Of a DNA stretch of 13,293 nucleotides, positions 1 to 13,293 are shown one piece after another (position 1 is the stretch's first letter; every line of letters starts with the position of its first letter). Made by a program: the position numbers and the translations under genes. The DNA is from a virus (lineage: Duplodnaviria > Heunggongvirae > Uroviricota > Caudoviricetes): IMG/VR virus record IMGVR_UViG_2563366821_000011. One strand, 5' to 3'. The notes beneath the pieces are model-generated. The model was not told the origin of the DNA and did not search any database. It was given only the letters and a program-made list of their open reading frames with translations.

Positions 1-669
1 ATGTGTGGACGCTTTGCCCAATCCCAAACGCGTGAAGATTACCTCGCGTTTCTCGCGGAAGATATTGAACGCGATATTCCCTACGATCCCGAACCTATTG
101 GCAGATACAACGTCGCGCCGGGAACCAAAGTCCTTCTGCTCAGTGAACGTGATGAACACCTTCATCTGGATCCGGTTTTCTGGGGATATGCTCCCGGATG
201 GTGGGATAAACCGCCGCTGATTAACGCCCGCGTAGAAACTGCCGCAACCAGTCGCATGTTTAAACCGCTCTGGCAACATGGTCGGGTAATATGCTTTGCC
301 GATGGCTGGTTTGAGTGGAAAAAAGAAGGCGACAAAAAACAGCCTTATTTTATCTATCGCGCTGATGGACAACCTGTTTTTATAGCCGCGATAGGTAGCA
401 CACCGTTTGAGCGCGGTGACGAAGCCGAAGGAGTTTTAATTGTCACTGCAGCAGCAGACCAGGGCCTGGTAGATATTCATGACCGCCGCCCGCTGGTACT
501 GTCGCCAGAAACTGCGCGGGAATGGATGCGGCAAGACATTGGTGGTAAAGAAGCCTCAGAAATCGCTACCAGAAGCTGTGTGCCAGCAAACCAGTTCATC
601 TGGCACCCTGTGTCGCGCGCGGTGGGTAATGTTAAAAACCAGGGCGCGGAGTTAATTCAACCTGTTTGA
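1..669 (+). CDS. yedK: SOS-response-associated peptidase (SRAP) / abasic-site processing protein YedK, 222 aa
   Basis: ORF opens with MCGRF (the N-terminal Cys2 nucleophile typical of SRAP proteins) and matches YedK of E. coli as I recall it. ATG at 1, TGA at 667-669. Confidence 0.9.
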   Translation: MCGRFAQSQTREDYLAFLAEDIERDIPYDPEPIGRYNVAPGTKVLLLSERDEHLHLDPVFWGYAPGWWDKPPLINARVETAATSRMFKPLWQHGRVICFADGWFEWKKEGDKKQPYFIYRADGQPVFIAAIGSTPFERGDEAEGVLIVTAAADQGLVDIHDRRPLVLSPETAREWMRQDIGGKEASEIATRSCVPANQFIWHPVSRAVGNVKNQGAELIQPV

Positions 670-864
670 TAAGCCTGGAGATTATCTACACCTGGATGGA
701 CATCATTGTACTATGCCCCGTACATGCCCCATCACATCCTCAACATCAAAGTATTAGAGCCTTGCAAACCATTATGCGTCTCAGTTTGTCTCATCTATCT
801 TACGCAAAAAAAATAGAACTAATATCAAGCGGCGCTATATTGCGTATTAAATAAAACCACCTCA

Positions 865-887
865 GGTGATGCTGCCAACTTACTGAT
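865..887. repeat. IS1 left terminal inverted repeat (about 23 bp)
   Basis: GGTGATGCTGCCAACTTACTGAT, imperfectly complementary to 1610-1632. Confidence 0.85.
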
Positions 888-919
888 TTAGTGTATGATG
901 GTGTTTTTGAGGTGCTCCA

Positions 920-1195
920 GTGGCTTCTGTTTCTATCAGCTGTCCCTCCTGTTCAGCTACTGACGGGGTGGTGCGTAACGGCAAAAGCACCGCCGGACAT
1001 CAGCGCTATCTCTGCTCTCACTGCCGTAAAACATGGCAACTGCAGTTCACTTACACCGCTTCTCAACCCGGTACGCACCAGAAAATCATTGATATGGCCA
1101 TGAATGGCGTTGGATGCCGGGCAACAGCCCGCATTATGGGCGTTGGCCTCAACACGATTTTACGTCACTTAAAAAACTCAGGCCGCAGTCGGTAA
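920..1195 (+). CDS. insA: IS1 InsA (transposition repressor / N-terminal part of the InsAB transposase), 91 aa, GTG start
   Basis: Translation [22 protein letters not shown]... with a CxxC...CxxC zinc finger and an HTH. Stop TAA at 1193-1195. Confidence 0.9.
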
Positions 1196-1617
1196 CCTCG
1201 CGCATACAGCCGGGCAGTGACGTCATCGTCTGCGCGGAAATGGACGAACAGTGGGGCTATGTCGGGGCTAAATCGCGCCAGCGCTGGCTGTTTTACGCGT
1301 ATGACAGGCTCCGGAAGACGGTTGTTGCGCACGTATTCGGTGAACGCACTATGGCGACGCTGGGGCGTCTTATGAGCCTGCTGTCACCCTTTGACGTGGT
1401 GATATGGATGACGGATGGCTGGCCGCTGTATGAATCCCGCCTGAAGGGAAAGCTGCACGTAATCAGCAAGCGATATACGCAGCGAATTGAGCGGCATAAC
1501 CTGAATCTGAGGCAGCACCTGGCACGGCTGGGACGGAAGTCGCTGTCGTTCTCAAAATCGGTGGAGCTGCATGACAAAGTCATCGGGCATTATCTGAACA
1601 TAAAACACTATCAATAA
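1114..1617 (+). CDS. insB: IS1 InsB reading frame (catalytic part of the InsAB transposase, made by -1 frameshift at AAAAAAC 1171-1177)
   Basis: 167-aa ORF in the -1 frame relative to insA that overlaps the insA 3-prime end. The A6C slippery motif sits at 1171-1177. Confidence 0.85.
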
Positions 1618-1632
1618 GTTGGAGTCATTACC
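1610..1632. repeat. IS1 right terminal inverted repeat (about 23 bp)
   Basis: Reverse complement GGTAATGACTCCAACTTATTGAT matches the left IR at most positions. Confidence 0.85.
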
Positions 1633-1663
1633 TCTGATCCCATGGTAATTCAGCTGTTATTTT

Positions 1664-2650
1664 CTATTTAAGAATAAAACGGTATTTACTGTCAGGAGTG
1701 CTTTGCTGATCAAGTAGCAGTGAACGACATGGAGCAGTCAAAACCCGAGCATAACTACCATCAGGGCTTATGTTAATGTAACAAACCTTGCCCTTAACAC
1801 TATAATTTTCGGGGACGGATGCCTTTGCTGATACAGTAAATTTAAGGGTATGCCAGCCCGTTTTTTGCTTGTAGCTTGAAACCGAATGGAAATCATCTGA
1901 GTACTTATTTAACCCTGGAAACATGCTGCGCAGTGCGGGGATGGAATCTTCTATTATTTTATCGTTGGTTTTAATGTTAAAAACGCTGGTTTCAGTAGAA
2001 GCTACTGCTTTGGCATTTCCCCATTTACCAGCGAACACAATCATTCCCACGAAAAATATTGCTACAAGAACTAACACTCCCCCCAACACTACTACATGAG
2101 GCTTCCGGCTTCTGGTTGGTACAGTTGCGACTGATTTTGCACCGCTTTCCGATGGAGGTGATAGAGTTTTACTCTCATCACGAATATTCAGCAGATCATC
2201 AAAATAACCAAACACAGCCTGCAACTGCTCTTTGTCTAGGCCTTTAAGATGGGTTGTACCGAAATGCTTCAGACAGTATCTGTCACGGTCAAGACGATAC
2301 CCAGGGTCAGTAAGCGCCATTATTTTGCTGACCAGAAGATTACAGTCCTTCATATTCTGGATCTGTTGTGCATATCTCTGAAGGATCTCAACCGCACCAT
2401 GATAATCAGCCGCAGTCATTTCATTAACTGTTTTGGTATTAAGTTTCGTGTGGATCGTCATCCATAGCTCGCGCTTACTTTCCCCCAGATCAACCAATTC
2501 ATCCATCAATCTGTGTAAATCGCGTTTTTGCAGCAACGAAATTGGTTGCTGGGCCGAAGGAAGTATGTCAGCAGAATAGTTATGAATGGTAACATCACCG
2601 CTGACAACGTTACCCACATCCCCGTTAACTGTTTGCTTCTCTTTACTCAT
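1664..2650 (-). CDS. Hypothetical single-pass membrane protein, 328 aa, translationally coupled to the prophage repressor
   Basis: 987-bp ORF in an AT-rich region (about 37-40 percent GC by hand count). Its ATG overlaps the repressor stop in an ATGA. One strongly hydrophobic segment (VVVLGGVLVLVAIFFVGMIVFAG, about aa 185-207) is flanked by basic residues. The N-terminal motif GDVGNVVSGDVTI resembles the repressor C-terminal tail. I recognise no known family. Confidence 0.7.
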   Translation of the reverse strand: MSKEKQTVNGDVGNVVSGDVTIHNYSADILPSAQQPISLLQKRDLHRLMDELVDLGESKRELWMTIHTKLNTKTVNEMTAADYHGAVEILQRYAQQIQNMKDCNLLVSKIMALTDPGYRLDRDRYCLKHFGTTHLKGLDKEQLQAVFGYFDDLLNIRDESKTLSPPSESGAKSVATVPTRSRKPHVVVLGGVLVLVAIFFVGMIVFAGKWGNAKAVASTETSVFNIKTNDKIIEDSIPALRSMFPGLNKYSDDFHSVSSYKQKTGWHTLKFTVSAKASVPENYSVKGKVCYINISPDGSYARVLTAPCRSLLLDQQSTPDSKYRFILK

Positions 2651-3108
2651 CTTCTCTTGGTATTTTTGTTCATTATTCCACCTGTTCCTATGGTTACGTT
2701 ACCTTTGATAACATTCCCCAGAACATCTCCATGAATAACCTGTTCCGCCCGTTCTCTGGAGGAGCCAGTAGTCAAGGCCGACAAAACTGAACCTTTGACC
2801 TGTAATGGTGCCTGCCGGTAGTGCTGCAGTAACTCCATTTCATCACGTGATAAAGTTATACCTGATGACTCCCCGGTAAGAATGAACTGTACATTGGCCC
2901 CAATTCTTGCAAAGGCTGCAAGTAACTCACCTCCGGGAACAGCAACCCCTCGTTCATATTTCCCCCACATTTCTCTTGAAACGCCACAAAGGGCTGCTAC
3001 TTCAGCCTGCTTGAGTGATAACCGCGAACGCTCAGCTTTGAACCGCGACGCGCAAAGAGAATCAAAATTCACACAAACCTCATTGACAATGAGAACAATA
3101 GTTCTCAT
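2647..3108 (-). CDS. XRE/Cro-C1-type HTH transcriptional repressor (prophage c-repressor analogue), up to 153 aa
   Basis: HTH motif LSLKQAEVAALCGVSREMWGKYERG. Transcribed divergently from the early operon, as for Mu c. The start is uncertain: ATG at 3108 lies inside the operator palindrome and has no SD (possibly leaderless), while an in-frame GTG at codon 13 is preceded by GAGG. Confidence 0.75.
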   Translation of the reverse strand: MRTIVLIVNEVCVNFDSLCASRFKAERSRLSLKQAEVAALCGVSREMWGKYERGVAVPGGELLAAFARIGANVQFILTGESSGITLSRDEMELLQHYRQAPLQVKGSVLSALTTGSSRERAEQVIHGDVLGNVIKGNVTIGTGGIMNKNTKRR

Positions 3109-3111
3109 AAT
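3083..3111 (+). promoter_or_regulatory. Putative sigma70 early promoter (Pe-like): -35 TTGACA (3083-3088), 17-bp spacer, -10 CATAAT (3106-3111)
   Basis: Consensus -35, ideal 17-bp spacing and a 5/6 -10, lying 48 bp upstream of the ner-position gene whose SD is AAGGAG and ATG is at 3159. Confidence 0.5.
3089..3108. promoter_or_regulatory. Putative operator: perfect palindrome ATGAGAAC-N4-GTTCTCAT within the early promoter spacer
   Basis: 8-bp perfect inverted repeat arms with a 4-bp spacer between the -35 and -10 of the rightward promoter. It overlaps the first codons of the repressor ORF. Confidence 0.5.
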
Positions 3112-3158
3112 CTATCACATATAAAACAAACATCATTGCATCAACAAAGGAGACAACA

Positions 3159-3347
3159 ATGACTTCCGAACAAGTTAAAAATCTCTTCCGTCAGCGTGGT
3201 ATCACGTTTACCCGCTGGGCCGAAGAACACGGCTACAGCCGCAATGAGGTCTATCGTGTTCTCAATGGACAGACCAAAGCTCGTTACGGCAAAGCCCATG
3301 AAATTGCCGTAAAACTGGGATTAAAACCCACGTCAAATGCGGCATAA
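3159..3347 (+). CDS. Small HTH DNA-binding protein in the ner position (Ner/Cro-like early regulator), 62 aa
   Basis: Strong SD AAGGAG 7 nt upstream. HTH-like segment TRWAEEHGYSRNEVYRVLNGQ. First gene of the rightward operon, opposite the repressor. Not obviously similar in sequence to Mu Ner. Confidence 0.65.
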   Translation: MTSEQVKNLFRQRGITFTRWAEEHGYSRNEVYRVLNGQTKARYGKAHEIAVKLGLKPTSNAA

Positions 3348-3399
3348 ATTTTCCACATATGCAACAGGTTATCACATATTGCAAAAATGGAAATGTGAC

Positions 3400-3708
3400 A
3401 TGAGTAAAGTAAATATTTCCAGTTCTGGGACCCGCATCCTACGTGTACTCAAAGCTCTACGCGGTCATGCTCTGAACGGTGTTTCTAACGGTGAACTGGC
3501 ATCAGCCCTGGGGGAGTCCCCGGCGAATATCAATCGAGCACTTAATACCCTTATTGAAGAGGGACTGGCCATGAAATTAGAGAACGGACGTTTCGCACCG
3601 GGAATCCAGTTACTACAGATCGCCATGGCTCACAGTCACGAGATGGCGCGTGCACAGGATCGTATTAACGAAATCAACCAACGAGTTATTTCAGGTAGTC
3701 GTTTGTAA
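3400..3708 (+). CDS. Winged-HTH DNA-binding protein (IclR/MarR-like N-terminal domain only), about 103 aa
   Basis: Motif ILRVLKALRGHALNGVSNGELASALGESPANINRALNTLIEEGLAMK resembles an IclR-type wHTH. Start chosen at ATG 3400 (weak SD); an alternative in-frame ATG at 3337 overlaps the upstream gene. Confidence 0.55.
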   Translation: MSKVNISSSGTRILRVLKALRGHALNGVSNGELASALGESPANINRALNTLIEEGLAMKLENGRFAPGIQLLQIAMAHSHEMARAQDRINEINQRVISGSRL

Positions 3709-3718
3709 GGAGTAATCA

Positions 3719-4633
3719 ATGGGACGCACCAAATCACCCGTTAACACTGAACTGAATGTTGAGGTTCCGCTGTCAGATAACATCAATGTCAATTTGAACG
3801 CTATGACACAGCATCGCATGGAAATTATGCAGCAGTTTGGTGATGGACTGCCTTATGAACGTGATCGCATTGTTCACGAAGCACGTTTTTATATGGCGCA
3901 GAGTGCTGAATCTATGCTGGAAGCGGGTAAGCGGCTGATCATCTTAAAAGAAAATGAGCCACACGGTGATTTTACAAACATTTTAGAAAATGAACTCGGA
4001 CTTGCACCACAAGTTGCTCGCCGCATGATGCAAGCCAGTATGAAGTTTTTGGGAGAAGGTGATGAGCCAACAAAACGCTCAACGTTGAGCGTTTTGGGGA
4101 AAGCCAAACTGTACGACCTGATGGTTCTGGATAATGAAGAACTTGATGAATTGGCCGACGGCGGCACAGTTGCCGGCCTGACGCTTGACGACGTTGATCG
4201 CATGTCAGTACGTGAATTGCGTCAGGCCCTGCGCGAAGCGCGCGAAACCAACGCAGCACAACAGCGCGTACTCGCCGACAAAAATGAAAAAATAGATTCA
4301 CTCTCCACCAGACTGGAGAAGAAATCCCGTATTCAGCCGCCTGAGCCTGATGAGGAGGTTAAGAAGCTGCGGGCGGAAGTAACAGCATTAGCGGTTGAGG
4401 CGGAATCTGCTATCGCCGTCCGACTGTCCAGCGCTTTTGAGACGCTGTGCGCATATTGTGCTGAAAACATGATTGATACCCCCAGAGACTTCATGGCAGG
4501 CCTGGTCTGTCAACTGGAAAGCACAGCGCGTAGCCTGCGCTCCACATTTGACCTGCCGGACGAGCCAACAGGCAATGCAGCGCCTTCATGGCTGACTGAG
4601 CCGACGCCACAGATTAACGGGCTGGAGGCATAA
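3719..4633 (+). CDS. Hypothetical early protein, DUF3102-like N-terminal region plus coiled-coil and acidic C-terminus, 304 aa
   Basis: SD TAAGGAG 6 nt upstream of ATG. Motif HGDFTNILENELGLAPQVARRMMQASMKF resembles what I recall of DUF3102. Stop is 3 nt before the transposase ATG. Confidence 0.6.
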   Translation: MGRTKSPVNTELNVEVPLSDNINVNLNAMTQHRMEIMQQFGDGLPYERDRIVHEARFYMAQSAESMLEAGKRLIILKENEPHGDFTNILENELGLAPQVARRMMQASMKFLGEGDEPTKRSTLSVLGKAKLYDLMVLDNEELDELADGGTVAGLTLDDVDRMSVRELRQALREARETNAAQQRVLADKNEKIDSLSTRLEKKSRIQPPEPDEEVKKLRAEVTALAVEAESAIAVRLSSAFETLCAYCAENMIDTPRDFMAGLVCQLESTARSLRSTFDLPDEPTGNAAPSWLTEPTPQINGLEA

Positions 4634-4636
4634 CCA

Positions 4637-6406
4637 ATGAATGCTGCCCTGACTGAACGACTGGTTTATGTCGCCCGCGCGGCACGTGACGCGGGGCATG
4701 GTAAACGCGGTGCAATATACGACGCTGCCTGTGCTGAACTTGGCATGTCCCGCGCCACTCTGCTGCGCAGGCTGAAGGAGGTCTCTGTGACTGATAAACG
4801 CAAAAAACGCGCCGATGCCGGGCGCAGCGCCCTGACCCGCGACGAAGCCGCGCTGATATCTGCCACACTGCGTGAGGCCACCCGCAAGAACGGTAAGCGT
4901 CTCTATTCCATCGCAGATGCAGTGGAAACCCTACGGGCTAACGGCTTTATCACCGCAGGCAGAACAGATGAAACCACCAGTGAGTTTTTCCCGTTGTCTG
5001 AAGATGCCATCAGCCGTGCTCTGCGTAACTATGGCCTGCACCCGGAACAACTGGATGCCCCTGCACCACATACCGAAGTGGCCAGTCTGCATCCCAATCA
5101 TGTCTGGCAGATTGACGCCTCACTCTGCACGCTTTACTACCTGAGCAATGGACATAAAGGGCTGCAGGTGATGGACAGCGCGAAGTTCTACAAGAACAAG
5201 CCCGCTAACCTTGCCCGTATCGCCAGTGACCGCGTGTGGAGTTACGAGATTACCGACCATGCCAGCGGCTGGATTTACGTTGAGTATGTGACGGGCGCGG
5301 AATCAGGTGAGAACCTGTGTTCTGTGCTTATCAACGCCATGCAGGAGCGTGGCGGCGCAGACGTGCTGCACGGCGTGCCGAAAATACTCTATCTCGACCC
5401 CGGCTCGGCAAACACCGCGGGTATGACGAAAAACATGTGCCGCTCACTGGGCATCGACCTGATAGCGCACAAGCCGCATAACGCCCGCGCCACCGGACAG
5501 GTGGAAAAGGCGCGTGACATTATCGAACGCAAGCTGGAGCCGGGGCTGAAGTTCCGGCCGGTTCACAGTCTGGAAGAACTCAACGCGCTGGCCGCGAAAT
5601 GGCGCAGCCACTTTAACGCCACGGCTGTTCACAGCCGCCACGGTAAAACCCGCACGGATATCTGGCTGAAGATTACTGCTGAGCAGCTGAAAAAAGCGCC
5701 TTCCGTTGAGGTATGTCGTGAACTGGCTGTGGCGGCACCAGAACTCCGCAAAGTCACGCCAAAACTTCGTGTCTCGTTCCGGGGCACTGAATTTGACGTA
5801 TCAACGGTACCGGGCGTACTGGTTGGTGAAAAACTGATGATTACCCGTAACCCATGGCGCAGCGATGTGGCACAGGTGGTTCTGACCGGTGAGGACGGCC
5901 ACGAGACGTTCTTCCTGGTCGAAGAGGTCAGAAAGAACGAGTTTGGCTTTGCTGAAGGCGCGGCGGTATTTGGCGAAAGTTACAAAGCCCTGCCGGAAAC
6001 CTCGGCACAGATGGCGGCAAAAGAAACTGAAGCGCTGGTTACCGGTACAGACAACGCTGCAGATGCAGCCGCCGCACGCAAGGCGAAGGCGCTGCCGTTC
6101 GGCGGGCGGCTTGACCCGTATAAACATATCGACGACACCACACTTCCGGCCTATATGCCGAAGCGTGGTCAGGCCTCTGACGTACGCGGGCCGCGCACTG
6201 AACAACGTCCCATGACTCATGTGGAGGCCGCGAAAGCCCTGCGCGATAAGTTCAGCGCCGACGGCCTTACCTGGACGCCGGAACATTACCGCCAGTTAAC
6301 GGCACAGTACCCGGACGGCGTACCGGAAGCTGCACTGGATGAAGTCATGGCCACGCTGACCACGCCGGCACGCAGCAGTGTTATCAGCATTGTTAACGGC
6401 AACTGA
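4637..6406 (+). CDS. Mu-like DDE transposase (A protein), 589 aa
   Basis: N-terminal HTH, then an rve-type catalytic core with D160 (HVWQIDAS), D254 (LYLDPGS) and E290 (ATGQVEKA; D-35-E spacing). Located immediately upstream of the AAA+ B gene. Confidence 0.9.
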   Translation: MNAALTERLVYVARAARDAGHGKRGAIYDAACAELGMSRATLLRRLKEVSVTDKRKKRADAGRSALTRDEAALISATLREATRKNGKRLYSIADAVETLRANGFITAGRTDETTSEFFPLSEDAISRALRNYGLHPEQLDAPAPHTEVASLHPNHVWQIDASLCTLYYLSNGHKGLQVMDSAKFYKNKPANLARIASDRVWSYEITDHASGWIYVEYVTGAESGENLCSVLINAMQERGGADVLHGVPKILYLDPGSANTAGMTKNMCRSLGIDLIAHKPHNARATGQVEKARDIIERKLEPGLKFRPVHSLEELNALAAKWRSHFNATAVHSRHGKTRTDIWLKITAEQLKKAPSVEVCRELAVAAPELRKVTPKLRVSFRGTEFDVSTVPGVLVGEKLMITRNPWRSDVAQVVLTGEDGHETFFLVEEVRKNEFGFAEGAAVFGESYKALPETSAQMAAKETEALVTGTDNAADAAAARKAKALPFGGRLDPYKHIDDTTLPAYMPKRGQASDVRGPRTEQRPMTHVEAAKALRDKFSADGLTWTPEHYRQLTAQYPDGVPEAALDEVMATLTTPARSSVISIVNGN

Positions 6407-6416
6407 GGAGGAAAAC

Positions 6417-7583
6417 ATGCTGGTACTGAAGCAGCAACTGAAAGAGGCCCGTATCCCACAGGCGGTGGTGGCGAGAGCTGTCGATGTTTCTGAGGCCACG
6501 CTGGCCCAGATTGTGAATCATAACGCGTGGCCCCGCACCAGCCCCGGAGAAGTGCGCCGGCGTCTTGCGTCCTGGCTGGAAAGTCAGGGGATTGATACAA
6601 CGAAGAGTTTTGATGCTGTACAGGGCGCAGCCACGCCCCGTACAGCGGGTACCACAGATAAAACGAGCCTCAGTGAGGAAGAGAATATGTTACTCAAAAA
6701 ACAGGTGTTATTTCCAGCAACCAAAAAAGCGTTTGGTCTTTTCCGTGACCCGTTCGCCGATGAAGCCATGCAGGGTTCTGATGATGTGTTCACCACCCCG
6801 GACATTCGCTACGTGCGTGAGGCGTTGTACCAGACAGCCCGTCATGGTGGGTTTATGGCCGTCATCGGTGAGTCCGGTGCGGGTAAATCCACGCTGCGCC
6901 GCGACCTGACTGAACGTATCAACCGCGAGAATGCGCCGGTAATTGTTATCGAGCCATACATCATCGCTATGGAAGACAACGATGTGAAAGGGAAAACCCT
7001 GAAGGCAGCAGCGATTGCCGAAGCCATTATCAGTACCATCGCACCACTGGAAAGCATCAGACGCAGTCAGGACGCCCGCTTTCGCCAGTTGCATCGCGTC
7101 CTGAAAGACAGCAGCCAGGCGGGGTTCAGCCACGTTTTGGTGATTGAGGAGGCCCACAGTCTGCCCATTCCGACACTGAAACACCTCAAACGCTTTTTTG
7201 AGCTGGAGTCCGGTTTCAAAAAACTGCTGTCCATCGTGCTGATTGGCCAGCCGGAACTGGCGACAAAACTGTCTGAACGCAATATGGAAGTCCGTGAAGT
7301 CGTTCAGCGTTGTGAGGTGGTCGAACTTCTGCCTCTGGACAATAACCTTGAAGAATTTCTGACGTTCAAACTGCAACGGGCCGGTAAACAACTGACGGAC
7401 ATTATGGACGCCAGCGCAGTGGATGCCATACGTGCCCGCCTGAGCAATCCGGGAAGTCATCGTAAAAATATGGTCAGCCTGCTGTATCCGCTGGCCGTCA
7501 GTAACCTGGTGATAGCCGCCATGAATCTGGCCGCTGAAATCGGGGTTCCACAGGTCAACGCTGACGTTGTCAAAGGGGTTTAA
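6417..7583 (+). CDS. Mu B-like AAA+ ATPase (transposition target DNA activator), 388 aa
   Basis: SD GAGGAGG directly upstream. N-terminal HTH (QAVVARAVDVSEATLAQIVN), Walker A GESGAGKST and Walker B VLVIEEAH. An in-frame internal ATG with its own SD lies at 6687. Confidence 0.85.
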   Translation: MLVLKQQLKEARIPQAVVARAVDVSEATLAQIVNHNAWPRTSPGEVRRRLASWLESQGIDTTKSFDAVQGAATPRTAGTTDKTSLSEEENMLLKKQVLFPATKKAFGLFRDPFADEAMQGSDDVFTTPDIRYVREALYQTARHGGFMAVIGESGAGKSTLRRDLTERINRENAPVIVIEPYIIAMEDNDVKGKTLKAAAIAEAIISTIAPLESIRRSQDARFRQLHRVLKDSSQAGFSHVLVIEEAHSLPIPTLKHLKRFFELESGFKKLLSIVLIGQPELATKLSERNMEVREVVQRCEVVELLPLDNNLEEFLTFKLQRAGKQLTDIMDASAVDAIRARLSNPGSHRKNMVSLLYPLAVSNLVIAAMNLAAEIGVPQVNADVVKGV

Positions 7584-7585
7584 TA

Positions 7586-7855
7586 ATGAAATCCACCACA
7601 GGTATCAACCAGCAAATCAGCAAAGTGCAGTCAGCCATTATGGCGCTTAAGGCGACGAACACGGATGTACAAAGCATCACCATCAGGGGTAACAAACCTG
7701 TCATCCGCGTTTCCCGGAGTGCGCATTGCATGCGCATGCTTGAGCAGGGAAAGGCCTGTTATCTGTATACCGGACATGACCACAGGGGATATTTCCGTCA
7801 GGGCGTTTTCGAACTGCACGGCTGTCGCGTCGTGTGGCCGGAATCTTTGTGGTAA
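7586..7855 (+). CDS. Hypothetical early protein, 89 aa
   Basis: ATG 3 nt after the B stop, with SD-like AAGGGG upstream. No recognisable motif. Confidence 0.55.
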   Translation: MKSTTGINQQISKVQSAIMALKATNTDVQSITIRGNKPVIRVSRSAHCMRMLEQGKACYLYTGHDHRGYFRQGVFELHGCRVVWPESLW

Positions 7856-7882
7856 TCAGCACAACAGGAGGAGTCATAAAAT

Positions 7883-8413
7883 ATGGCAAAAAGTACAAAA
7901 GGGGCAAAACGTATCAAAGCCGCAGCAGCACTCTGGGTGCCGGGGACACGCGAAGAGGTCATTGAGGGAATCAGACTGCTTGGTGACGCGCAACGTGAAC
8001 TGGTCAGGGCTGAAACAGAAATGAATGACACCATTGGCGACATCACTGCACGTTATGCCCCGCTCACCGAGAGCCTGAAAAAACGCATGGCCGAACTGCA
8101 GTCCGGTATCCAGACATGGTGTGAGGCGCACCGTGATGAACTGACCGGCAACGGGAAGGTGAAGTTCGCTAACCTCACCACCGGCGAGGTGCAGTGGCGA
8201 AACCGTCCGCCGTCAGTCAGCATTCGCGGGGCGGATAATGTCATTGAACTGCTGAGACGTCTGGGGCTTGAGCGCTTTATTCGTGTAAAGGAGGAAATAA
8301 ATAAAGATGCCATTCTGAATGAAAAAGAGGCCGTGAAAAATATTCCCGGTATTTCCATTAAAAGCGACATTGAGGATTTTTCAATAATTCCTTTTGAGCA
8401 GGATGTGCAGTAA
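7883..8413 (+). CDS. gam: Host-nuclease inhibitor Gam (Mu Gam family, Ku-like DNA-end binding), 176 aa
   Basis: Strong SD AGGAGG. Co-linear with Mu Gam as I recall it: MAKxxKRIKxAAAxxVP..., TEMNDxI, WCEAxRDELT, PPSVSIRGxDxV, GLxRFIRxKxEINKxAIL and C-terminal EDFSIIPFEQ. Confidence 0.9.
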   Translation: MAKSTKGAKRIKAAAALWVPGTREEVIEGIRLLGDAQRELVRAETEMNDTIGDITARYAPLTESLKKRMAELQSGIQTWCEAHRDELTGNGKVKFANLTTGEVQWRNRPPSVSIRGADNVIELLRRLGLERFIRVKEEINKDAILNEKEAVKNIPGISIKSDIEDFSIIPFEQDVQ

Positions 8414-8510
8414 ACACACCACGTTAATTATTTAATAAAAACATTTTCTTTTTTATTCCGGCGTCAGCGCCGTGGGCTTCTGCACGCCGGAAACAGAGGA
8501 GAATTAAATT

Positions 8511-8705
8511 ATGATATTTAAATGTATTCAGTGCGAGAGGGATATAACAGCCCTGCGTTTTCACAGCGCCATCGCCGTGATGTCCGGTAAGTATCACATA
8601 CCTGCAGTACGTGTCACCCTGGTCTGCCCGTACTGCAGCCAGCATTTTTCGGCGGACGTGCCCGTCATGGAATTCTCCCGCCCTGACAGGGAGGACGCGC
8701 AATGA
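8511..8705 (+). CDS. Small zinc-ribbon protein, 64 aa
   Basis: SD GAGGAG. Two CxxC pairs (C5/C8 and C39/C42). Its stop overlaps the next start in an ATGA. Confidence 0.55.
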   Translation: MIFKCIQCERDITALRFHSAIAVMSGKYHIPAVRVTLVCPYCSQHFSADVPVMEFSRPDREDAQ

Positions 8706-8974
8706 TTACCCCACAGGAAGCACGACAGCGCACCCGAACCCTTGTTGAACACTATGTCAACGAGTGTGAATGCCGCGACCTCACCGATGTGAATCACGTC
8801 CTGACGGCGCTAATCAGCATGGCCACACAGGCCATTGTGGCGACCAACGGAAAGGAGGCTGCCCTGCAGGTACTGATGAACACACTCACCCACACGGCAG
8901 AGCATGAGGTGCCGTACCGGATGGAAACCACTGCAGAAGGCGGCCTGCACATCACCGTCAGCCGGAAGCACTGA
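8702..8974 (+). CDS. Hypothetical early protein, 90 aa
   Basis: ATGA overlap with the upstream ORF. Codon usage matches its neighbours. Confidence 0.5.
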   Translation: MITPQEARQRTRTLVEHYVNECECRDLTDVNHVLTALISMATQAIVATNGKEAALQVLMNTLTHTAEHEVPYRMETTAEGGLHITVSRKH

Positions 8975-8983
8975 GGGCGCGGC

Positions 8984-9280
8984 ATGACACGAAACACCGA
9001 ACTCACCCGCACCGCCCTCTACCGTCTGGCCCTGCAGCGTTTCGGGCCGGACGCACAGGCCCTGAAACTGGCAGAAGAGGCCGCTGAACTGGCGGCCAGT
9101 GCCGCCCGCAACCTGAACGGACAGGGCAGCGAAAGTGACCTCGCGGCAGAGCTGGCAGACGTGGAAATCATGACAGAGCAACTGCGCCTTCAGGGGATGG
9201 ACCGGCTGATTGACTTCCACAAACAGAAAAAACTGGAACGTCTGGCTGCACGACTGGGCGTGATTTACACGAACGAGTAA
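8984..9280 (+). CDS. MazG-like nucleoside triphosphate pyrophosphohydrolase domain protein, 98 aa
   Basis: Motifs KLAEEAAELAASAARN and AAELADVEIMTEQL resemble the acidic EExxE and E-x-x-D metal-binding helices of small MazG/HisE-like NTP-PPases. SD GAGGG upstream. Confidence 0.6.
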   Translation: MTRNTELTRTALYRLALQRFGPDAQALKLAEEAAELAASAARNLNGQGSESDLAAELADVEIMTEQLRLQGMDRLIDFHKQKKLERLAARLGVIYTNE

Positions 9281-9294
9281 CCGGGAGGCATTCA

Positions 9295-9510
9295 ATGGCT
9301 GACATACTCAGGGAAATCACCGCATGGACACTGATTCTTACTGGCCTGGCGACATGCCTCAGTGCGGGGGCAGCCCTGGCTGCCCTGCTGATGCACATAA
9401 CAACACAGTGGTTATGGGAAAAGCTTAAAGCAGCATACAGCCTGAAAGAGCTGTCCGACGCTGTCCGGGCATGGAAACGGCAGAAAAATACCGGAGATAC
9501 AGAACAATGA
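9295..9510 (+). CDS. Small membrane protein, 71 aa
   Basis: SD GGGAGG. Hydrophobic helix ITAWTLILTGLATCLSAGAALAALLM. Its stop overlaps the next start in an ATGA. Confidence 0.5.
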   Translation: MADILREITAWTLILTGLATCLSAGAALAALLMHITTQWLWEKLKAAYSLKELSDAVRAWKRQKNTGDTEQ

Positions 9511-10190
9511 CAGACCAGAATAAACACATTGAGAAACTGAAAAAGTTGCTGGCGCTGGCCGCATCCGGCAACCCGCACGAGGCCGCTCTGGCACTGCGCC
9601 GAGCCCGTAAACTGATGGATGTTCACGGCATCACACATTCCGACATTGCTATGAGTGATATTGATGAAACCATCAGTCACTACTGGCCGACAGGCAGTCT
9701 CCGTCCACCGCGCTACATGCTGGGCCTGATGAACATCATCCGCGAGGTATTTGGTGTTAACTCCATCATTCACCCCGGCACGCACCCGTCTGTGGGGTTC
9801 TACGGCAACCGGGAACGTGCGGCACTGGCTGCATACACCTGGGAAGTGCTGGCCCGTCAGCTGAAAAAGGCGCGTCAGCAGTATATCAGTGCACAGAACA
9901 AAAGAATAAAAACCGCCACCCGCACCAGCCGTGGAGACCAGTTTGCCGAAGGCTGGGTGCTGGCCGTTATCAGTGAAATACAGTCCTTTGCCCTGACCGA
10001 TGATGAGCGTGAACTGATGCAGCAGTGGCTGGAACATAAATACCCGCAGACGCAAACCACCAGGGCGCGTAAACCGGGAAGAAGCCGCAATGGCGACGCC
10101 TCGCGCTATGCGGGGTTTCGTGAAGGGCAGAACGTCAGACTGCACCGCCCGGTCAGTGGGCAGGAACAACAGAAACTGGAGGCCAGATGA
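9507..10190 (+). CDS. Hypothetical early protein with DUF2786-like N-terminal motif, 227 aa
   Basis: N-terminus IEKLKKLLALAASGNPHEAALALRRARKLMDVHGI matches the conserved DUF2786 motif as I recall it. ATGA overlap with the upstream gene, SD GGAGA. Confidence 0.6.
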   Translation: MTDQNKHIEKLKKLLALAASGNPHEAALALRRARKLMDVHGITHSDIAMSDIDETISHYWPTGSLRPPRYMLGLMNIIREVFGVNSIIHPGTHPSVGFYGNRERAALAAYTWEVLARQLKKARQQYISAQNKRIKTATRTSRGDQFAEGWVLAVISEIQSFALTDDERELMQQWLEHKYPQTQTTRARKPGRSRNGDASRYAGFREGQNVRLHRPVSGQEQQKLEAR

Positions 10191-10417
10191 TTACGCTATC
10201 AGGTAACAGCCGGAAATTAAAAGCCTGCCGAATATCTGCCAGATACCTTTTTGCCCGCGCCTTTTTTAAGAACGTCAGGCCGGGGATCACAATTGGTGTT
10301 ATTGCCGGACGCGAACAGGTTGAAAAATACATGTCAGGTGCATGGTGGAATAACGACCCTGTCATTGCTGCCCGTAATATTCATATCAGTTGGGGGGATA
10401 TTCAGAATGACGGCTGA
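10187..10417 (+). CDS. Hypothetical small protein, 76 aa
   Basis: ATGA overlap with the upstream gene; basic N-terminus. Weakly supported. Confidence 0.4.
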   Translation: MITLSGNSRKLKACRISARYLFARAFFKNVRPGITIGVIAGREQVEKYMSGAWWNNDPVIAARNIHISWGDIQNDG

Positions 10418-10622
10418 ATCTGTTGTATGTGCCCTGTTCTGGTATTGTTTTGTCGGTTGGTGTACTGCTGAACTGCACCGCCGTTCAGGGTTTTATTCAC
10501 GTTACAGTGGTGCCGGCTACTGGATTAGCTGGTCGGTGATGTTCCTGTGCTGGCCTGTGGCGCTTCCTTTATATGTCGATTATATCGGTGGCGCAGGTAA
10601 AAGGAGCAACGATGATGACTAA
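10407..10622 (+). CDS. Small membrane protein, 71 aa
   Basis: SD GGGGGGA 8 nt upstream of ATG. Two hydrophobic, Trp/Cys-rich segments (VVCALFWYCFVGWC and WISWSVMFLCWPVALPLYV). Confidence 0.45.
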   Translation: MTAESVVCALFWYCFVGWCTAELHRRSGFYSRYSGAGYWISWSVMFLCWPVALPLYVDYIGGAGKRSNDDD

Positions 10623-11064
10623 ACAACGTCTTATCCAGCTCATTCATATTGCCCGTAATGAACTGGGTATGGATGAAGACACCTACCGCCAGATGTTACA
10701 GGGGCTGACCGGTAAAGCCTCAACCAAAGGAATGGATACCACACAACTAAACTGCGTGCTGGAATCCATGAAAAGGAAAGGCTTTCGCGTTAAGCCTGCC
10801 AGAAAAGCCAGCTCCGGTTTACCGCTGGATAACCATCCGCAGTCCAGGAAAATCCGTGCGCTATGGCTTGAAATGGCTGCTGCCGGCATTGTTCGTGACC
10901 GTTCAGAAAATGCATTAGCGCGGTGGATCAAGCGGGAAACGGGCATCAGCGCCCTGCGCTGGCTCAATACTGAACAGGCAAGCAGTGTTATTGAGAAACT
11001 GAAGAAGTGGCAGCGCAGAGCTGCGGGAGTAAAACATGAGCGACCTGAATCAGTTTCGAAGTAA
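10612..11064 (+). CDS. gemA: GemA-like protein (Mu gp16 family, DUF1018), 150 aa
   Basis: SD AAGGAG 5 nt upstream. N-terminal motif KQRLIQLIHIARNELGMDEDTYRQMLQGLTGKAS is typical of Mu gp16/GemA-like proteins. Lies immediately upstream of mor, as in Mu. Confidence 0.7.
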   Translation: MMTKQRLIQLIHIARNELGMDEDTYRQMLQGLTGKASTKGMDTTQLNCVLESMKRKGFRVKPARKASSGLPLDNHPQSRKIRALWLEMAAAGIVRDRSENALARWIKRETGISALRWLNTEQASSVIEKLKKWQRRAAGVKHERPESVSK

Positions 11065-11434
11065 AGGGCCGGAACTCCTGGTGGAACTGGCACAGCATAC
11101 CTCTGAGACCGTTCGCGAGATTATTGATATTGAGCCCGCAATTGCCGACCAGATTGGTCAGGCCGTCGCGAACCGAATGATGCAGGTCTGGGGCGGGCAA
11201 AACGTTTATTTCCCGATGGGCATGGTATGGAAGGTCAGTCAGCGCGACCGGGAAATCTTCAGGGAGTTTAACGGACGCAACCACCACGAACTGGCCCGCA
11301 ATTTTGGTGTTTCGCTTCAGTGGGTCTACAGCGTGGTTAAGCGGGTCAGAAAAGAAGAACTGGATCGGATGCAGGGCAGGTTGTTTGATGAAGATCTGCC
11401 AGAGGAGACGAAAGACGTTAACAAATCCAGATAA
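11036..11434 (+). CDS. mor: Mor-family transcriptional activator (middle operon regulator), 132 aa
   Basis: Motifs GGQNVYFP and FNGRNHHELARNFGVSLQWVYSVVKRVRK match the Mor/C family HTH region. Last gene of the early operon. Confidence 0.85.
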   Translation: MSDLNQFRSKGPELLVELAQHTSETVREIIDIEPAIADQIGQAVANRMMQVWGGQNVYFPMGMVWKVSQRDREIFREFNGRNHHELARNFGVSLQWVYSVVKRVRKEELDRMQGRLFDEDLPEETKDVNKSR

Positions 11435-11479
11435 TTCCTGCTTGTTAAAGTCCTTTCAAAAATCTCCTTATTGTATAAG

Positions 11480-11511
11480 AGCACGGTAGACCCTTTACCG
11501 TGCTTTTTTTA
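11480..11511 (+). terminator. Rho-independent terminator-like hairpin (stem AGCACGGTA / TACCGTGCT, 7-nt loop, T-run)
   Basis: Perfect 9-bp inverted repeat immediately followed by 6-7 T, 46 bp after the mor stop. It could also serve as a dyad protein-binding site. Confidence 0.6.
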
Positions 11512-11548
11512 TGCTCTCTATGTAATATTCAGGATGCAGGGAGAAAAT

Positions 11549-12181
11549 ATGTTTGACGTTTCGTTATTAAATCTGCCATGGGCAACACTGGTGACCCTGA
11601 CCAGTGGCTATATTGGGTATTTTATTGCGAATGTGGGGCTGAAGGATCACCACAAACCCATTGAGGTGACTTTTTCTTCGCTGATTTTTGGCCTGACAGC
11701 AATGATGGCTTACCAGGCTGTTATGTGGGCAGGTCTGAATGCCTGGCTGGCAACCCCCCCAGCACTTCTGTGTGCCGTTACATGCGGTGCGTGGTGGCGC
11801 AGGTACGGTCGCAAATGGATGTACAGATTACTGTGGAATAATGATATTTCATGGTCTGACAATACCAGCTCAGCATGGCAGGCAATGTTTGATCAAACAG
11901 GCTTCAGCGTCACCGAGGTCAGAGTGATTCTTCGCGATGGTTCCGGTATGATGTCACGGCTGCCAGGGAACTTTGAAGAGTGGCCTAACGGTCCGTTTAC
12001 CCTGGGAAATAAAGGCGATATGGTTCTTTACGTCACGCACAGCAGCCCTTCAGGAAGTAACGAATGGGAAGAGTATAAAGGCGTGGTTGATAAGTACTGG
12101 GGAGCTCTGGCAACCTATATTCCAGCAGATCAGATTGCCAGAGTGGAGATCAGGCGCGTTCGTGCAACGAACGATGAATGA
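11549..12181 (+). CDS. Hypothetical membrane protein (three N-terminal TM helices plus a soluble C-terminal domain of about 120 aa), 210 aa
   Basis: SD GGGAGA 7 nt upstream of ATG. Three hydrophobic segments in the first 85 aa, followed by RRYGRK. Occupies the position where Mu carries C. No family recognised. Confidence 0.65.
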   Translation: MFDVSLLNLPWATLVTLTSGYIGYFIANVGLKDHHKPIEVTFSSLIFGLTAMMAYQAVMWAGLNAWLATPPALLCAVTCGAWWRRYGRKWMYRLLWNNDISWSDNTSSAWQAMFDQTGFSVTEVRVILRDGSGMMSRLPGNFEEWPNGPFTLGNKGDMVLYVTHSSPSGSNEWEEYKGVVDKYWGALATYIPADQIARVEIRRVRATNDE

Positions 12182-12343
12182 TGTTTATTTTTTCCCTGGA
12201 GCAGGAGCTGCCGGCATAGTGGTTTTATTGGCAGAGGAAGACGATTCTCCTTTTCTACCGGAATCGCGCTCGAACGTCACAATGTGCTTGCTTTTGGGCT
12301 TTTCTGAGTAATCCAGGCTGTCATGCTTATTGTTTTGAGTAGT

Positions 12344-12421
12344 CATTGGAATCATCCTTTTTGTTACGGGTCATGTTTCAGCAAACTCGATTCTAAGTTG
12401 CCAGGAAGGATGATTTCAATG
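12344..12421. repeat. Inverted repeat, 16 bp arms (CATTGGAATCATCCTT / AAGGATGATTTCAATG, 15/16 match) separated by 46 bp
   Basis: Direct reading of the sequence: arms at 12344-12359 and 12406-12421. Confidence 0.5.
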
Positions 12422-12499
12422 CCCGACTTATCTATCGTATAGCGGAAAAGAATTTCAGTTCTGTTCACCAGAACCCATGTTAACCCACTCCAATTCGTT

Positions 12500-12532
12500 A
12501 TTTATCTCACGGATCCCCCTTCATTTATCTCA
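12500..12532. repeat. Direct repeat ATTTATCTCA x2 (12500-12509 and 12523-12532), 23-bp register, next to the dgcQ junction
   Basis: Exact 10-bp direct repeat, each followed by a GATC-containing segment, lying just inside the foreign DNA. Confidence 0.4.
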
Positions 12533-13293
12533 TGTCTGATCAACCAGTAGTTATTACTGTCTACCGGAACACTGACGGTAACCTGCGGTTCAGTATTGCT
12601 GGCGTGTTCCGGTTGCGAAGTGAACCAGCGTACCGCGCGGTGACGATTTTCTCGTTGTGAATGGCCGATAAACCAGGGTTGGGTGACATAGCCGTAATAA
12701 CGCGTTGGTACATTGCGCGTAAACAAGGTCGGCAGCGTCGAAACGTAAAATCCAGCACGCGAGACATACACCGCCTGTTCAACCATCGACGAGGAGTTGT
12801 GCGCCAGTCGCAGCAAGTAACCAACTTCCAGTGCAGCGGTAATTTCATTGTCGAGGCTTTCATTTTCGCGAGACAGGAGATTCCCCTCGCTGACTAATGC
12901 ATCCGATACGCCATTGACTGGCAGGGTGCGCCGTCGGTTGAGTTCGATTTGCCAGGTGTGCTCGTCGCGATGCTGTTCGAACTCGGTTACGGCATTACGC
13001 AGAGAGGTGAAATCCAGTGGCGCCACGAGAGCTTCGCGCATGCCATTACGCAAAAAGATCAGTTTGTCGACGTTATACTGCAAATGCTTATCGAGCGCGT
13101 TGGCTACGTTTTCCAGATGATTACGCTGGCTGGAGATATAGGCATCTTCCAGCACCACCACTTCACGCCAGGTGAGCAAGGTGGAAAAAAGCAATACCAC
13201 GATAAAGCAGAGATTAACGATATGACCAGGCCCCAGGCGGCGTGCGAGTTTTTTCAACCAGCTCTGGTTTTCCATTTTTGTCTCGTGCTGCAC
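12502..13293 (-). pseudogene. dgcQ: 5-prime fragment of a DgcQ/YedQ-like membrane-anchored diguanylate cyclase gene (N-terminal TM and periplasmic sensor domain only; GGDEF domain absent)
   Basis: The ORF starts at the window edge (GTG) and reads [15 protein letters not shown]..., with a signal-anchor TM ([18 protein letters not shown]) and a periplasmic-type domain. It ends after 263 aa with a short unrelated tail ([13 protein letters not shown]) and has no GGDEF motif. Identity is from memory of E. coli YedQ (about 564 aa). Confidence 0.55.

Follow-up and report, generated by a model that had tools for sequence, protein, structure and literature searches.

The stretch of DNA considered here, 13,293 bp catalogued in IMG/VR as virus record IMGVR_UViG_2563366821_000011 and called the window in what follows, begins with the Escherichia coli gene yedK and ends within a truncated dgcQ gene; between the two lie only 195 bp of intergenic DNA, a single IS1 element and a 10,910-bp piece of a transposable prophage of the Mu type (Table 1). 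Similarity searches and the annotation of K-12 bear out the original prediction, which was made from the sequence alone, that yedK and dgcQ are adjacent here and that both keep their K-12 orientations (yedK on the plus strand and dgcQ on the minus strand), with nothing else between them than the elements just named. Taken together, the comparisons described below make it very probable that three mobile-element events, one after another, shaped this locus in an E. coli lineage that is rich in IS1 and comes from human hosts.

Table 1. Features of the window, in order of position
Feature	Position	Strand	Basis
yedK (SOS-response-associated peptidase, SRAP), complete, K-12 orientation	1-669	+	nucleotide identity; Pfam SRAP 1.1e-50
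intergenic spacer 3' of yedK, 195 bp	670-864		BLAST against K-12 and AF14
IS1 (IS1A type), intact, 768 bp	865-1632	+	sequence read directly; AF3 annotation as IS1A family transposase
insA	920-1195	+	IS1 reading frame
insB'	1114-1617	+	IS1 reading frame
deletion junction, last base of right IS1 end joined to prophage	1632..1633		BLAST coordinates against AF3
Mu-like transposable prophage, left 10,910 bp	1633-12542	+	99.98% identity to AF3
328-residue prophage protein, function unknown, predicted membrane helix 181-213	1664-2650	-	phrog_10002 8e-228; hydropathy scan
helix-turn-helix repressor candidate, divergent from early operon	2647-3108	-	Pfam HTH_31, HTH_3; PHROG transcriptional regulator/repressor families
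Mu-A-like DDE transposase, 589 residues	4637-6406	+	Pfam rve; phrog_310 transposase 3.4e-147
Mu-B-like AAA+ DNA transposition protein, 388 residues	6417-7583	+	Pfam AAA_22; phrog_296 2.2e-93
Gam host-nuclease inhibitor	7883-8413	+	AF3 annotation; Pfam Phage_Mu_Gam on identical product
GemA (gp16)	10615-11064	+	identical products; AF3 annotation
Mor middle-gene activator	11036-11434	+	Pfam Mor 3.6e-43; identical products; AF3 annotation
open reading frame of unknown function, 210 residues	11549-12181	+	phrog_12870 / phrog_15726 pair, both of unknown function
open reading frame of unknown function, 53 residues	12185-12346	-	phrog_12870 / phrog_15726 pair, both of unknown function
prophage left terminus	12440-12542		direct reading; terminus shared by strain 2822, where the insertion site differs
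truncated dgcQ with 13 phage-derived codons and stop	12502-13293	-	translation; CHASE7 only in Pfam
surviving copy of the 6-bp target duplication, ACCAGT (opposite strand ACTGGT)	12543-12548		comparison with AF3 and K-12

The two flanking genes can be identified with confidence. Positions 1-669 are 100% identical to the annotated yedK of AF3, Nissle 1917, NU14 and others, and positions 1-685 are 94.5% identical to the region of K-12 b1931. At the other end, 12543-13293 on the minus strand is 97.5% identical to codons 1-250 of K-12 dgcQ and has the same strand as in K-12. In relatives with 100% identical flanks the outer neighbours follow a K-12-like order, yedD-yedE-yedF-yedK on one side and dgcQ'-yodC-yedI-yedA-vsr-dcm on the other, and because of this synteny we regard the two genes as orthologues and not as paralogues, in line with the names first given to them. 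Within the spacer, positions 670-685 still match K-12, whose match ends at 685, while the match to AF14 reaches 864; positions 686-864 have no K-12 counterpart and are a lineage-specific sequence common to 462 B2-type genomes. Our comparison collection comprised 5,426 complete E. coli genomes, and window 1-864 is covered in 462 of them.

The exact prophage-dgcQ junction of the window is common to five complete genomes: AF14, OZ546911, AF3 (NZ_OZ547117.1), MSB1_4I (NZ_LR898874.1) and SCU-172 (NZ_CP054353.1). In AF14 and OZ546911 the 37.5-kb prophage lies in dgcQ between two copies of ACTGGT, and fliE-fliR, rcsA, dsrB, yodD, yedP and the 3' part of dgcQ are intact. In AF3, MSB1_4I and SCU-172 an IS1 lies 195 bp downstream of yedK, with the final 90 bp of fliR immediately after it. 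Compared with AF14, AF3 has thus had 17.4 kb, from just 3' of yedK into fliR (L005 2938-20333), swapped for IS1, and the resulting yedK-IS1-fliR' arrangement has an identical 30,991-bp spacing in the three genomes. The window resembles these three in its yedK-IS1 junction, which is identical, in the prophage at dgcQ codon 250, in the lack of fliE-fliQ and in the DNA shared with them, which is 99.98-100% identical; it differs from them in that they keep the fliR stub, rcsA, dsrB, yodD, yedP, the 3' part of dgcQ and a complete prophage. Aligned with AF3, window 1-1632 corresponds to L002 44863-43232 with 100% identity, the yedK-IS1 junction included, and window 1633-13293 corresponds, colinearly, to L002 12973-1313. 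Over these shared 11,661 bp there are two differences from AF3, both synonymous, and ten from AF14. The two AF3 differences, at window positions 4933 and 6058, are third-position changes in the transposase gene (Leu99 and Ala474).

What the window lacks can be read from the same alignments. Relative to AF3, 30,258 bp are missing (AF3 L002 12974-43231), made up of 3,677 bp of host DNA with the fliR stub, rcsA, dsrB, yodD, dsrA, yedP and the 3' part of dgcQ, and of 26,581 bp of prophage with the lysis, head, tail and invertase genes. With AF14 as the reference, the missing DNA adds up to 47,655 bp. Because the nearest genomes differ by only 0-2 bases in the shared parts, and because the missing DNA forms in them one colinear block that starts at the IS1 end, the comparison supports the view that the DNA separating yedK from dgcQ, including fliE-fliR and rcsA, is absent from this locus. 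The estimate of about 20 kb of lost host DNA was a fair one: the matching points of the window are 16,761 bp apart in K-12 (L003 2507-19267), and the same interval comprises 21,075 bp of host DNA in AF14, the closest of the relatives whose fli genes are intact. An Rfam scan found DsrA in the AF14 interval (102.5 bits) and gave no DsrA match in the window.

The gene list on which the original prediction relied was that of K-12, and the annotated K-12 order (yedK, yedL, yedN, intG, fliE, fliF-fliR, rcsA, dsrB, yodD, dsrA, yedP, dgcQ) agrees with it, but the content between yedK and fliE differs in the lineage of the window. In the AF14 lineage this interval (L005 2938-9440) contains genes for a porin and a kinase inhibitor, ybcM, a fragment of ybcL, emrE and two copies of ISKpn26, in place of yedL, yedN and intG; ISKpn26 aside, the gene names in this list are those of K-12 genes in the DLP12 prophage. 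Likewise, the loss of flagellar genes and rcsA from the locus stands, but the flagellar genes should not have been labelled region II: in the nomenclature of Macnab, fliE-fliR make up flagellar region IIIb. A region III name is also used in the title of Al Mamun 1997 ('region III flagellar operons'), as that work is cited in PMC9830988.

The loss of flagellar genes was followed in the relatives with a probe in which window 11400-13293 was joined to 500-bp pieces of fliF, fliI and fliM. On the AF3, MSB1_4I and SCU-172 chromosomes only the junction was found and the fliF, fliI and fliM pieces had no match anywhere, so that the closest relatives have truly lost these genes through the first deletion; on the AF14 and OZ546911 chromosomes the probe matched at four places, all three fli pieces included. 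Across the collection, 234 of the 5,426 genomes (4.3%) have no megablast match to fliF-fliI, and loss of this region is therefore not rare. As for the junction between IS1 and the prophage, no genome in the collection spans it (query, window 1433-1832), and scans of genome_contigs and metagenome_contigs for the exact 42-mer at the junction gave 0 matches. The junction is new among the searched genomes, and the type of event is well-known IS-driven gene loss.

The relatives stem from human blood cultures or from a human commensal collection, and the locus is at least 99.9% identical to that of B2 strains such as NU14. A table in PMC7407071 lists SCU-172 under multilocus sequence type 379, apparently in a phylogroup F block; we did not rely on this placement, given the identity of the locus to B2 strains. 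The five relatives each carry at least 40 IS1-matching pieces, compared with a median of about 10-12 places per genome. Of the 'Shigella-like or IS-rich' lineage that had been predicted, the IS-rich part is thus borne out by the IS1 counts and the Shigella part is not, the relatives being blood-culture and commensal E. coli that are B2-like at this locus.

The IS1 element itself is intact. By direct reading its ends are GGTGATGCTGCCAACTTACTGAT and ATCAATAAGTTGGAGTCATTACC, with both terminal repeats present, and an A6C frameshift motif (AAAAAAC at 1171) joins insA and insB'. The length of 768 bp, the GGTGATGCTGCCAACTTACTGAT-type terminal inverted repeats and the insA/insB' pair with its A6C motif are together those that define the IS1 family, and the element and its left junction are 100% identical to the IS1 beside yedK in AF3. 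An 8-9-bp target-site duplication is absent, the 9-bp flanks reading ACCACCTCA on the left and TCTGATCCC on the right. Since the two flanks are unrelated, this IS1 is not a simple insertion, as is expected if a rearrangement came after its insertion; the absent duplication speaks against simple insertion and not against the identity of the element as IS1.

The other end of the locus tells of a different element. The surviving dgcQ reading frame encodes 250 DgcQ residues followed by 13 phage-encoded residues and a stop, 263 residues in all. Codons 1-250 (12544-13293) cover membrane helix 1 and the CHASE7 domain; Pfam recognizes the whole of CHASE7 (residues 41-227) in the fusion and gives no GGDEF match, the GGDEF domain of K-12 DgcQ occupying residues 398-557. 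At the level of Pfam, then, dgcQ is indeed cut after its sensor domain, although in terms of the K-12 protein the break still falls within the periplasmic part, ahead of the second membrane helix, so that this helix is lost together with the GGDEF domain. In AF3 the truncated gene is annotated as a pseudogene 'missing C-terminus'.

It was not the deletion that truncated dgcQ, as had been assumed. In AF3 the hexamer ACTGGT stands on both sides of the prophage, and in K-12 it is present as a single copy; in an independent insertion of the phage in strain 2822, of sequence type 131 (L006 2357-40487), CGTAGC stands on both sides. Because 6-bp duplications accompany two independent insertions and the hexamer is single in K-12, we conclude that transposition of the Mu-like phage split dgcQ and that the 3' half of the gene was lost later. 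The window retains one copy of the duplication; the second lay beside the 3' part of dgcQ, now deleted. Public assemblies include 1,176 blocks with the exact 263-residue DgcQ-phage fusion, one of them on metagenome scaffold ERZ28667311, which indicates that the lineage with the phage in dgcQ is widely sampled. The flanks of 10 kb returned by this look-up are too short to reach IS1, and the only place listed runs on into the late genes of the prophage. A literature search found no paper linking dgcQ to a Mu-like prophage.

The assignment of the phage to the Mu-like group is based on its rve transposase and AAA+ ATPase and on its 5'-TG...CA-3' ends, which are flanked by short duplications at unrelated sites. 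Read outward, the left terminus ends in ...TGATCA, with 5'-TG on the phage strand, and contains repeated GAGATAAAT(G/A)A motifs resembling those of the right end; the complete prophage ends in TGATCA...GCGCATCA (TGATCA...CATCA), with repeated GATAAAT motifs. The phage has been found next to at least eight different left-flank sequences. Of the Mu-type accessory genes, Gam, GemA and Mor are in the window, and Portal_Mu, Phage_Mu_F and Phage_Mu_Gp27 are found in the full copies of the relatives only. The nearest isolated phage is Escherichia phage PhiKM (PQ738613.1), with 95.5% identity over 73% of the remnant. PhiKM and other Mu-like phages share with the prophage the DDE transposase, the MuB-like ATPase, Gam, GemA, Mor, the 5'-TG...CA-3' ends and the short target duplications. 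The target duplication of Mu is 5 bp, and the prophage differs from Mu in that its duplication is 6 bp (ACTGGT, CGTAGC).

Combining the junctions with the series of relatives, we suggest the following history: (i) a 37.5-kb Mu-like phage transposed into dgcQ at codon 250, creating the 6-bp duplication and parting the sensor half of the gene from its catalytic half, as the duplications in AF3 record; (ii) a copy of IS1 arrived 195 bp downstream of yedK, where it stands in the window and in the three AF3-type genomes; and (iii) the DNA to the right of IS1 was deleted from the exact right IS1 end with the yedK-side junction left unchanged, a step whose product is seen in the window and whose mechanism we infer from that product. 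In AF3, MSB1_4I and SCU-172 the deletion takes out 17.4 kb and ends within fliR; in the window it extends 47.7 kb from this IS1 end, 30,258 bp beyond AF3, and its endpoint is in the prophage, 31 bp past the repressor operon. The single deletion of about 20 kb that had been envisaged does not account for the locus: at least three events are involved and about 26.6 kb of prophage were lost as well.

Judged from the pattern of junctions, the most likely mechanism of deletion is intramolecular replicative transposition of IS1, known as 'adjacent deletion', in which the IS1 end would attack the same molecule and the intervening DNA would leave as a non-replicating circle. The missing block abuts the exact IS1 terminus, and IS1 and the opposite junction are unchanged relative to AF3. 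Adjacent deletion is favoured because the loss starts at an intact IS1 terminus, because the other junction is untouched and because there is no target duplication; moreover, two different endpoints, one in fliR and one in the prophage, were reached from the same IS1 end, which fits repeated activity of that end. IS1-mediated adjacent deletions were reportedly described by Reif and Saedler in 1975. The classical cases, like the window, start at an IS1 terminus, keep the IS1 and its other junction, lack a duplication and have variable distal endpoints; they came, however, from laboratory selections involving plasmids or the gal region, whereas the window shows a natural chromosomal event of 30-48 kb with a mechanism deduced from its product. 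Adjacent deletions from an exact IS terminus are described as an outcome of intramolecular target-primed transposition in PMC9330008, where Turlan and Chandler 1995 is cited for adjacent deletion by IS1. An inversion as the origin of the window was ruled out, the early region of the prophage keeping its orientation relative to both yedK and dgcQ.

A different route to the same structure would be homologous recombination: a second IS1 in the same orientation could have inserted into the prophage at window position 1633, and RecA-dependent recombination between the two IS1 copies could then have removed the 30 kb (or 47.7 kb) separating them. This would leave one IS1 between unrelated flanks, exactly as observed, and in a lineage in which each relative carries at least 40 IS1-matching pieces, both new insertions and recombination between copies are plausible. 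However, an IS1 at that prophage site is present in none of the 5,426 genomes, this route costs one event more than a one-ended transpositional deletion, and the shorter deletion in AF3-type genomes is bordered by the same IS1 end, which is typical of repeated adjacent deletions. We therefore consider recombination between two IS1 copies possible but unlikely. It is far less probable still that the genes were relocated, with an excised circle of IS1 and 30 kb, or an IS1-flanked composite, reintegrating at another IS1 copy, so that rcsA, dsrA, yedP, the 3' part of dgcQ and the late phage genes would still be present elsewhere. The many IS1 copies would offer homologous targets for this, but an excised circle cannot replicate and would have to reintegrate at once, and the fli genes of the first deletion are nowhere on the chromosomes of three relatives, so that the precedent in the lineage is true loss. 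Even with relocation, dgcQ would still be split and fliE-fliQ would still be absent.

Equally remote is an artefact of assembly, in which an AF3-like genome with an additional IS1 in the prophage had its two IS1 copies collapsed and the 30 kb between them dropped. The join does pass through a 768-bp repeat of which related genomes have dozens of copies, and the junction is unique when compared with the complete genomes. Nevertheless, such an error would need an extra, unobserved IS1 at exactly 1633, the window runs without a break across a complete IS1 whose ends are perfect, as a long-read or finished assembly should, and its structure is the exact product of a known biological mechanism. Several points weigh against a history of three successive events ending in an adjacent deletion. 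That the lost genes are absent from the rest of the source genome is something we infer; rcsA, dsrA, yedP and the 3' part of dgcQ are without any sampled relative sharing their loss; the final structure fits intramolecular transposition and IS1-IS1 homologous recombination alike; a nested order of events, starting from an AF3-like arrangement, and a sibling order, starting from an ancestor with IS1 and intact fli genes, require an equal number of events; and assembly errors can occur where a join runs across a 768-bp repeat.

The adjacent deletion, as we favour it, left the prophage as a fragment. In AF3 the full prophage measures 37,491 bp (L002 2064-39554), and the 10,910 bp in the window are its left 29%. 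The full prophage is also annotated in AF14 and strain 2822. The remnant has only one of the two prophage ends, the left end at 12542, the right end and the late genes having been deleted; besides that end it retains the repressor operon and all of the early operon, and it has no lysis, head, tail or invertase genes. The prophage differs from other Mu-like phages in that its early operon points toward the genome end, the repressor lies about 10 kb inside and the late genes run the opposite way. An inversion inside the AF3 prophage, which would have turned the late genes away from the early operon, was rejected as the cause, the layout being shared by strain 2822 and by all full copies listed. 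Since the same arrangement is found elsewhere with proper ends and target duplications, it is the normal organisation of the phage.

The prophage gene nearest to IS1 encodes the 328-residue protein. It shares 4 bp with the repressor gene and has survived intact, the deletion ending 31 bp after its stop codon. A domain scan gave no Pfam match and PADLOC no match for the 328-residue protein, for which a weak precomputed Flk_N match is on record. Public assemblies contain its exact sequence in 11,828 blocks, and the places listed are all full prophages at other sites. PADLOC likewise gave no match for the open reading frames of 210 and 53 residues near the left end. The block that carries these two reading frames (11395-12542) is present in a minority of related prophages, most of which match only to 11391 or 11394 and then continue in different DNA; by its distribution the block looks like a variable cargo (moron) slot. 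In the full prophage, a tail-fibre segment beside a gin-like recombinase is inverted between AF3 (L002 approximately 37230-37447) and AF14 (L005 24727-24944), the two being 92.7% identical on opposite strands, a pattern suggestive of past activity of an invertible host-range switch of the G-segment type.

Established gene functions allow the consequences for the cell to be predicted. Without a flagellar basal body and export apparatus the cell would be non-motile and H-antigen negative; without RcsA it would lack RcsA-boosted induction of colanic acid; without DsrA it would lack DsrA-dependent control of RpoS and H-NS; and without the DgcQ cyclase there would be no DgcQ input into the regulation of cellulose. 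The membrane-anchored CHASE7 fragment may still be made. With a single end and without genes for lysis or the virion, the prophage remnant is predicted to be unable to transpose or to lyse the cell, with the repressor and the early operon still encoded.

Loss of fli genes of the Shigella type is recognized when the fliF operon or flhDC is physically lost or disrupted by an IS, and here the fliF-fliR interval is absent from the locus. The loss of region III fli genes in Shigella (Al Mamun 1997, as cited in PMC9830988) resembles the present case in the predicted non-motility and in its occurrence in an IS-rich lineage of the E. coli complex; it differs in its breakpoints, whereas here rcsA, dsrA and dgcQ are lost as well and the relatives are bloodstream and commensal E. 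coli. A bolder proposal, which we regard as rather improbable, is that the IS1 end beside yedK acts as a repeated generator of deletions, that the stepwise losses were selected and not neutral, and that Shigella-like reduction and the 'grounding' of a prophage are caught here in three sampled stages. If this were true, selection would have removed the flagellar basal-body and export genes first and then rcsA and dsrA together with what remained of dgcQ and the lethal half of the prophage, and it would have retained the repressor operon with its 328-residue membrane protein and the early genes.

The locus reveals no new mechanism or gene family. It provides a clean natural case of two nested or sibling deletions from one IS1 end and of a transposable prophage disarmed by a neighbouring insertion sequence, and it is useful for reading the phenotype of the strain and for its serotyping.

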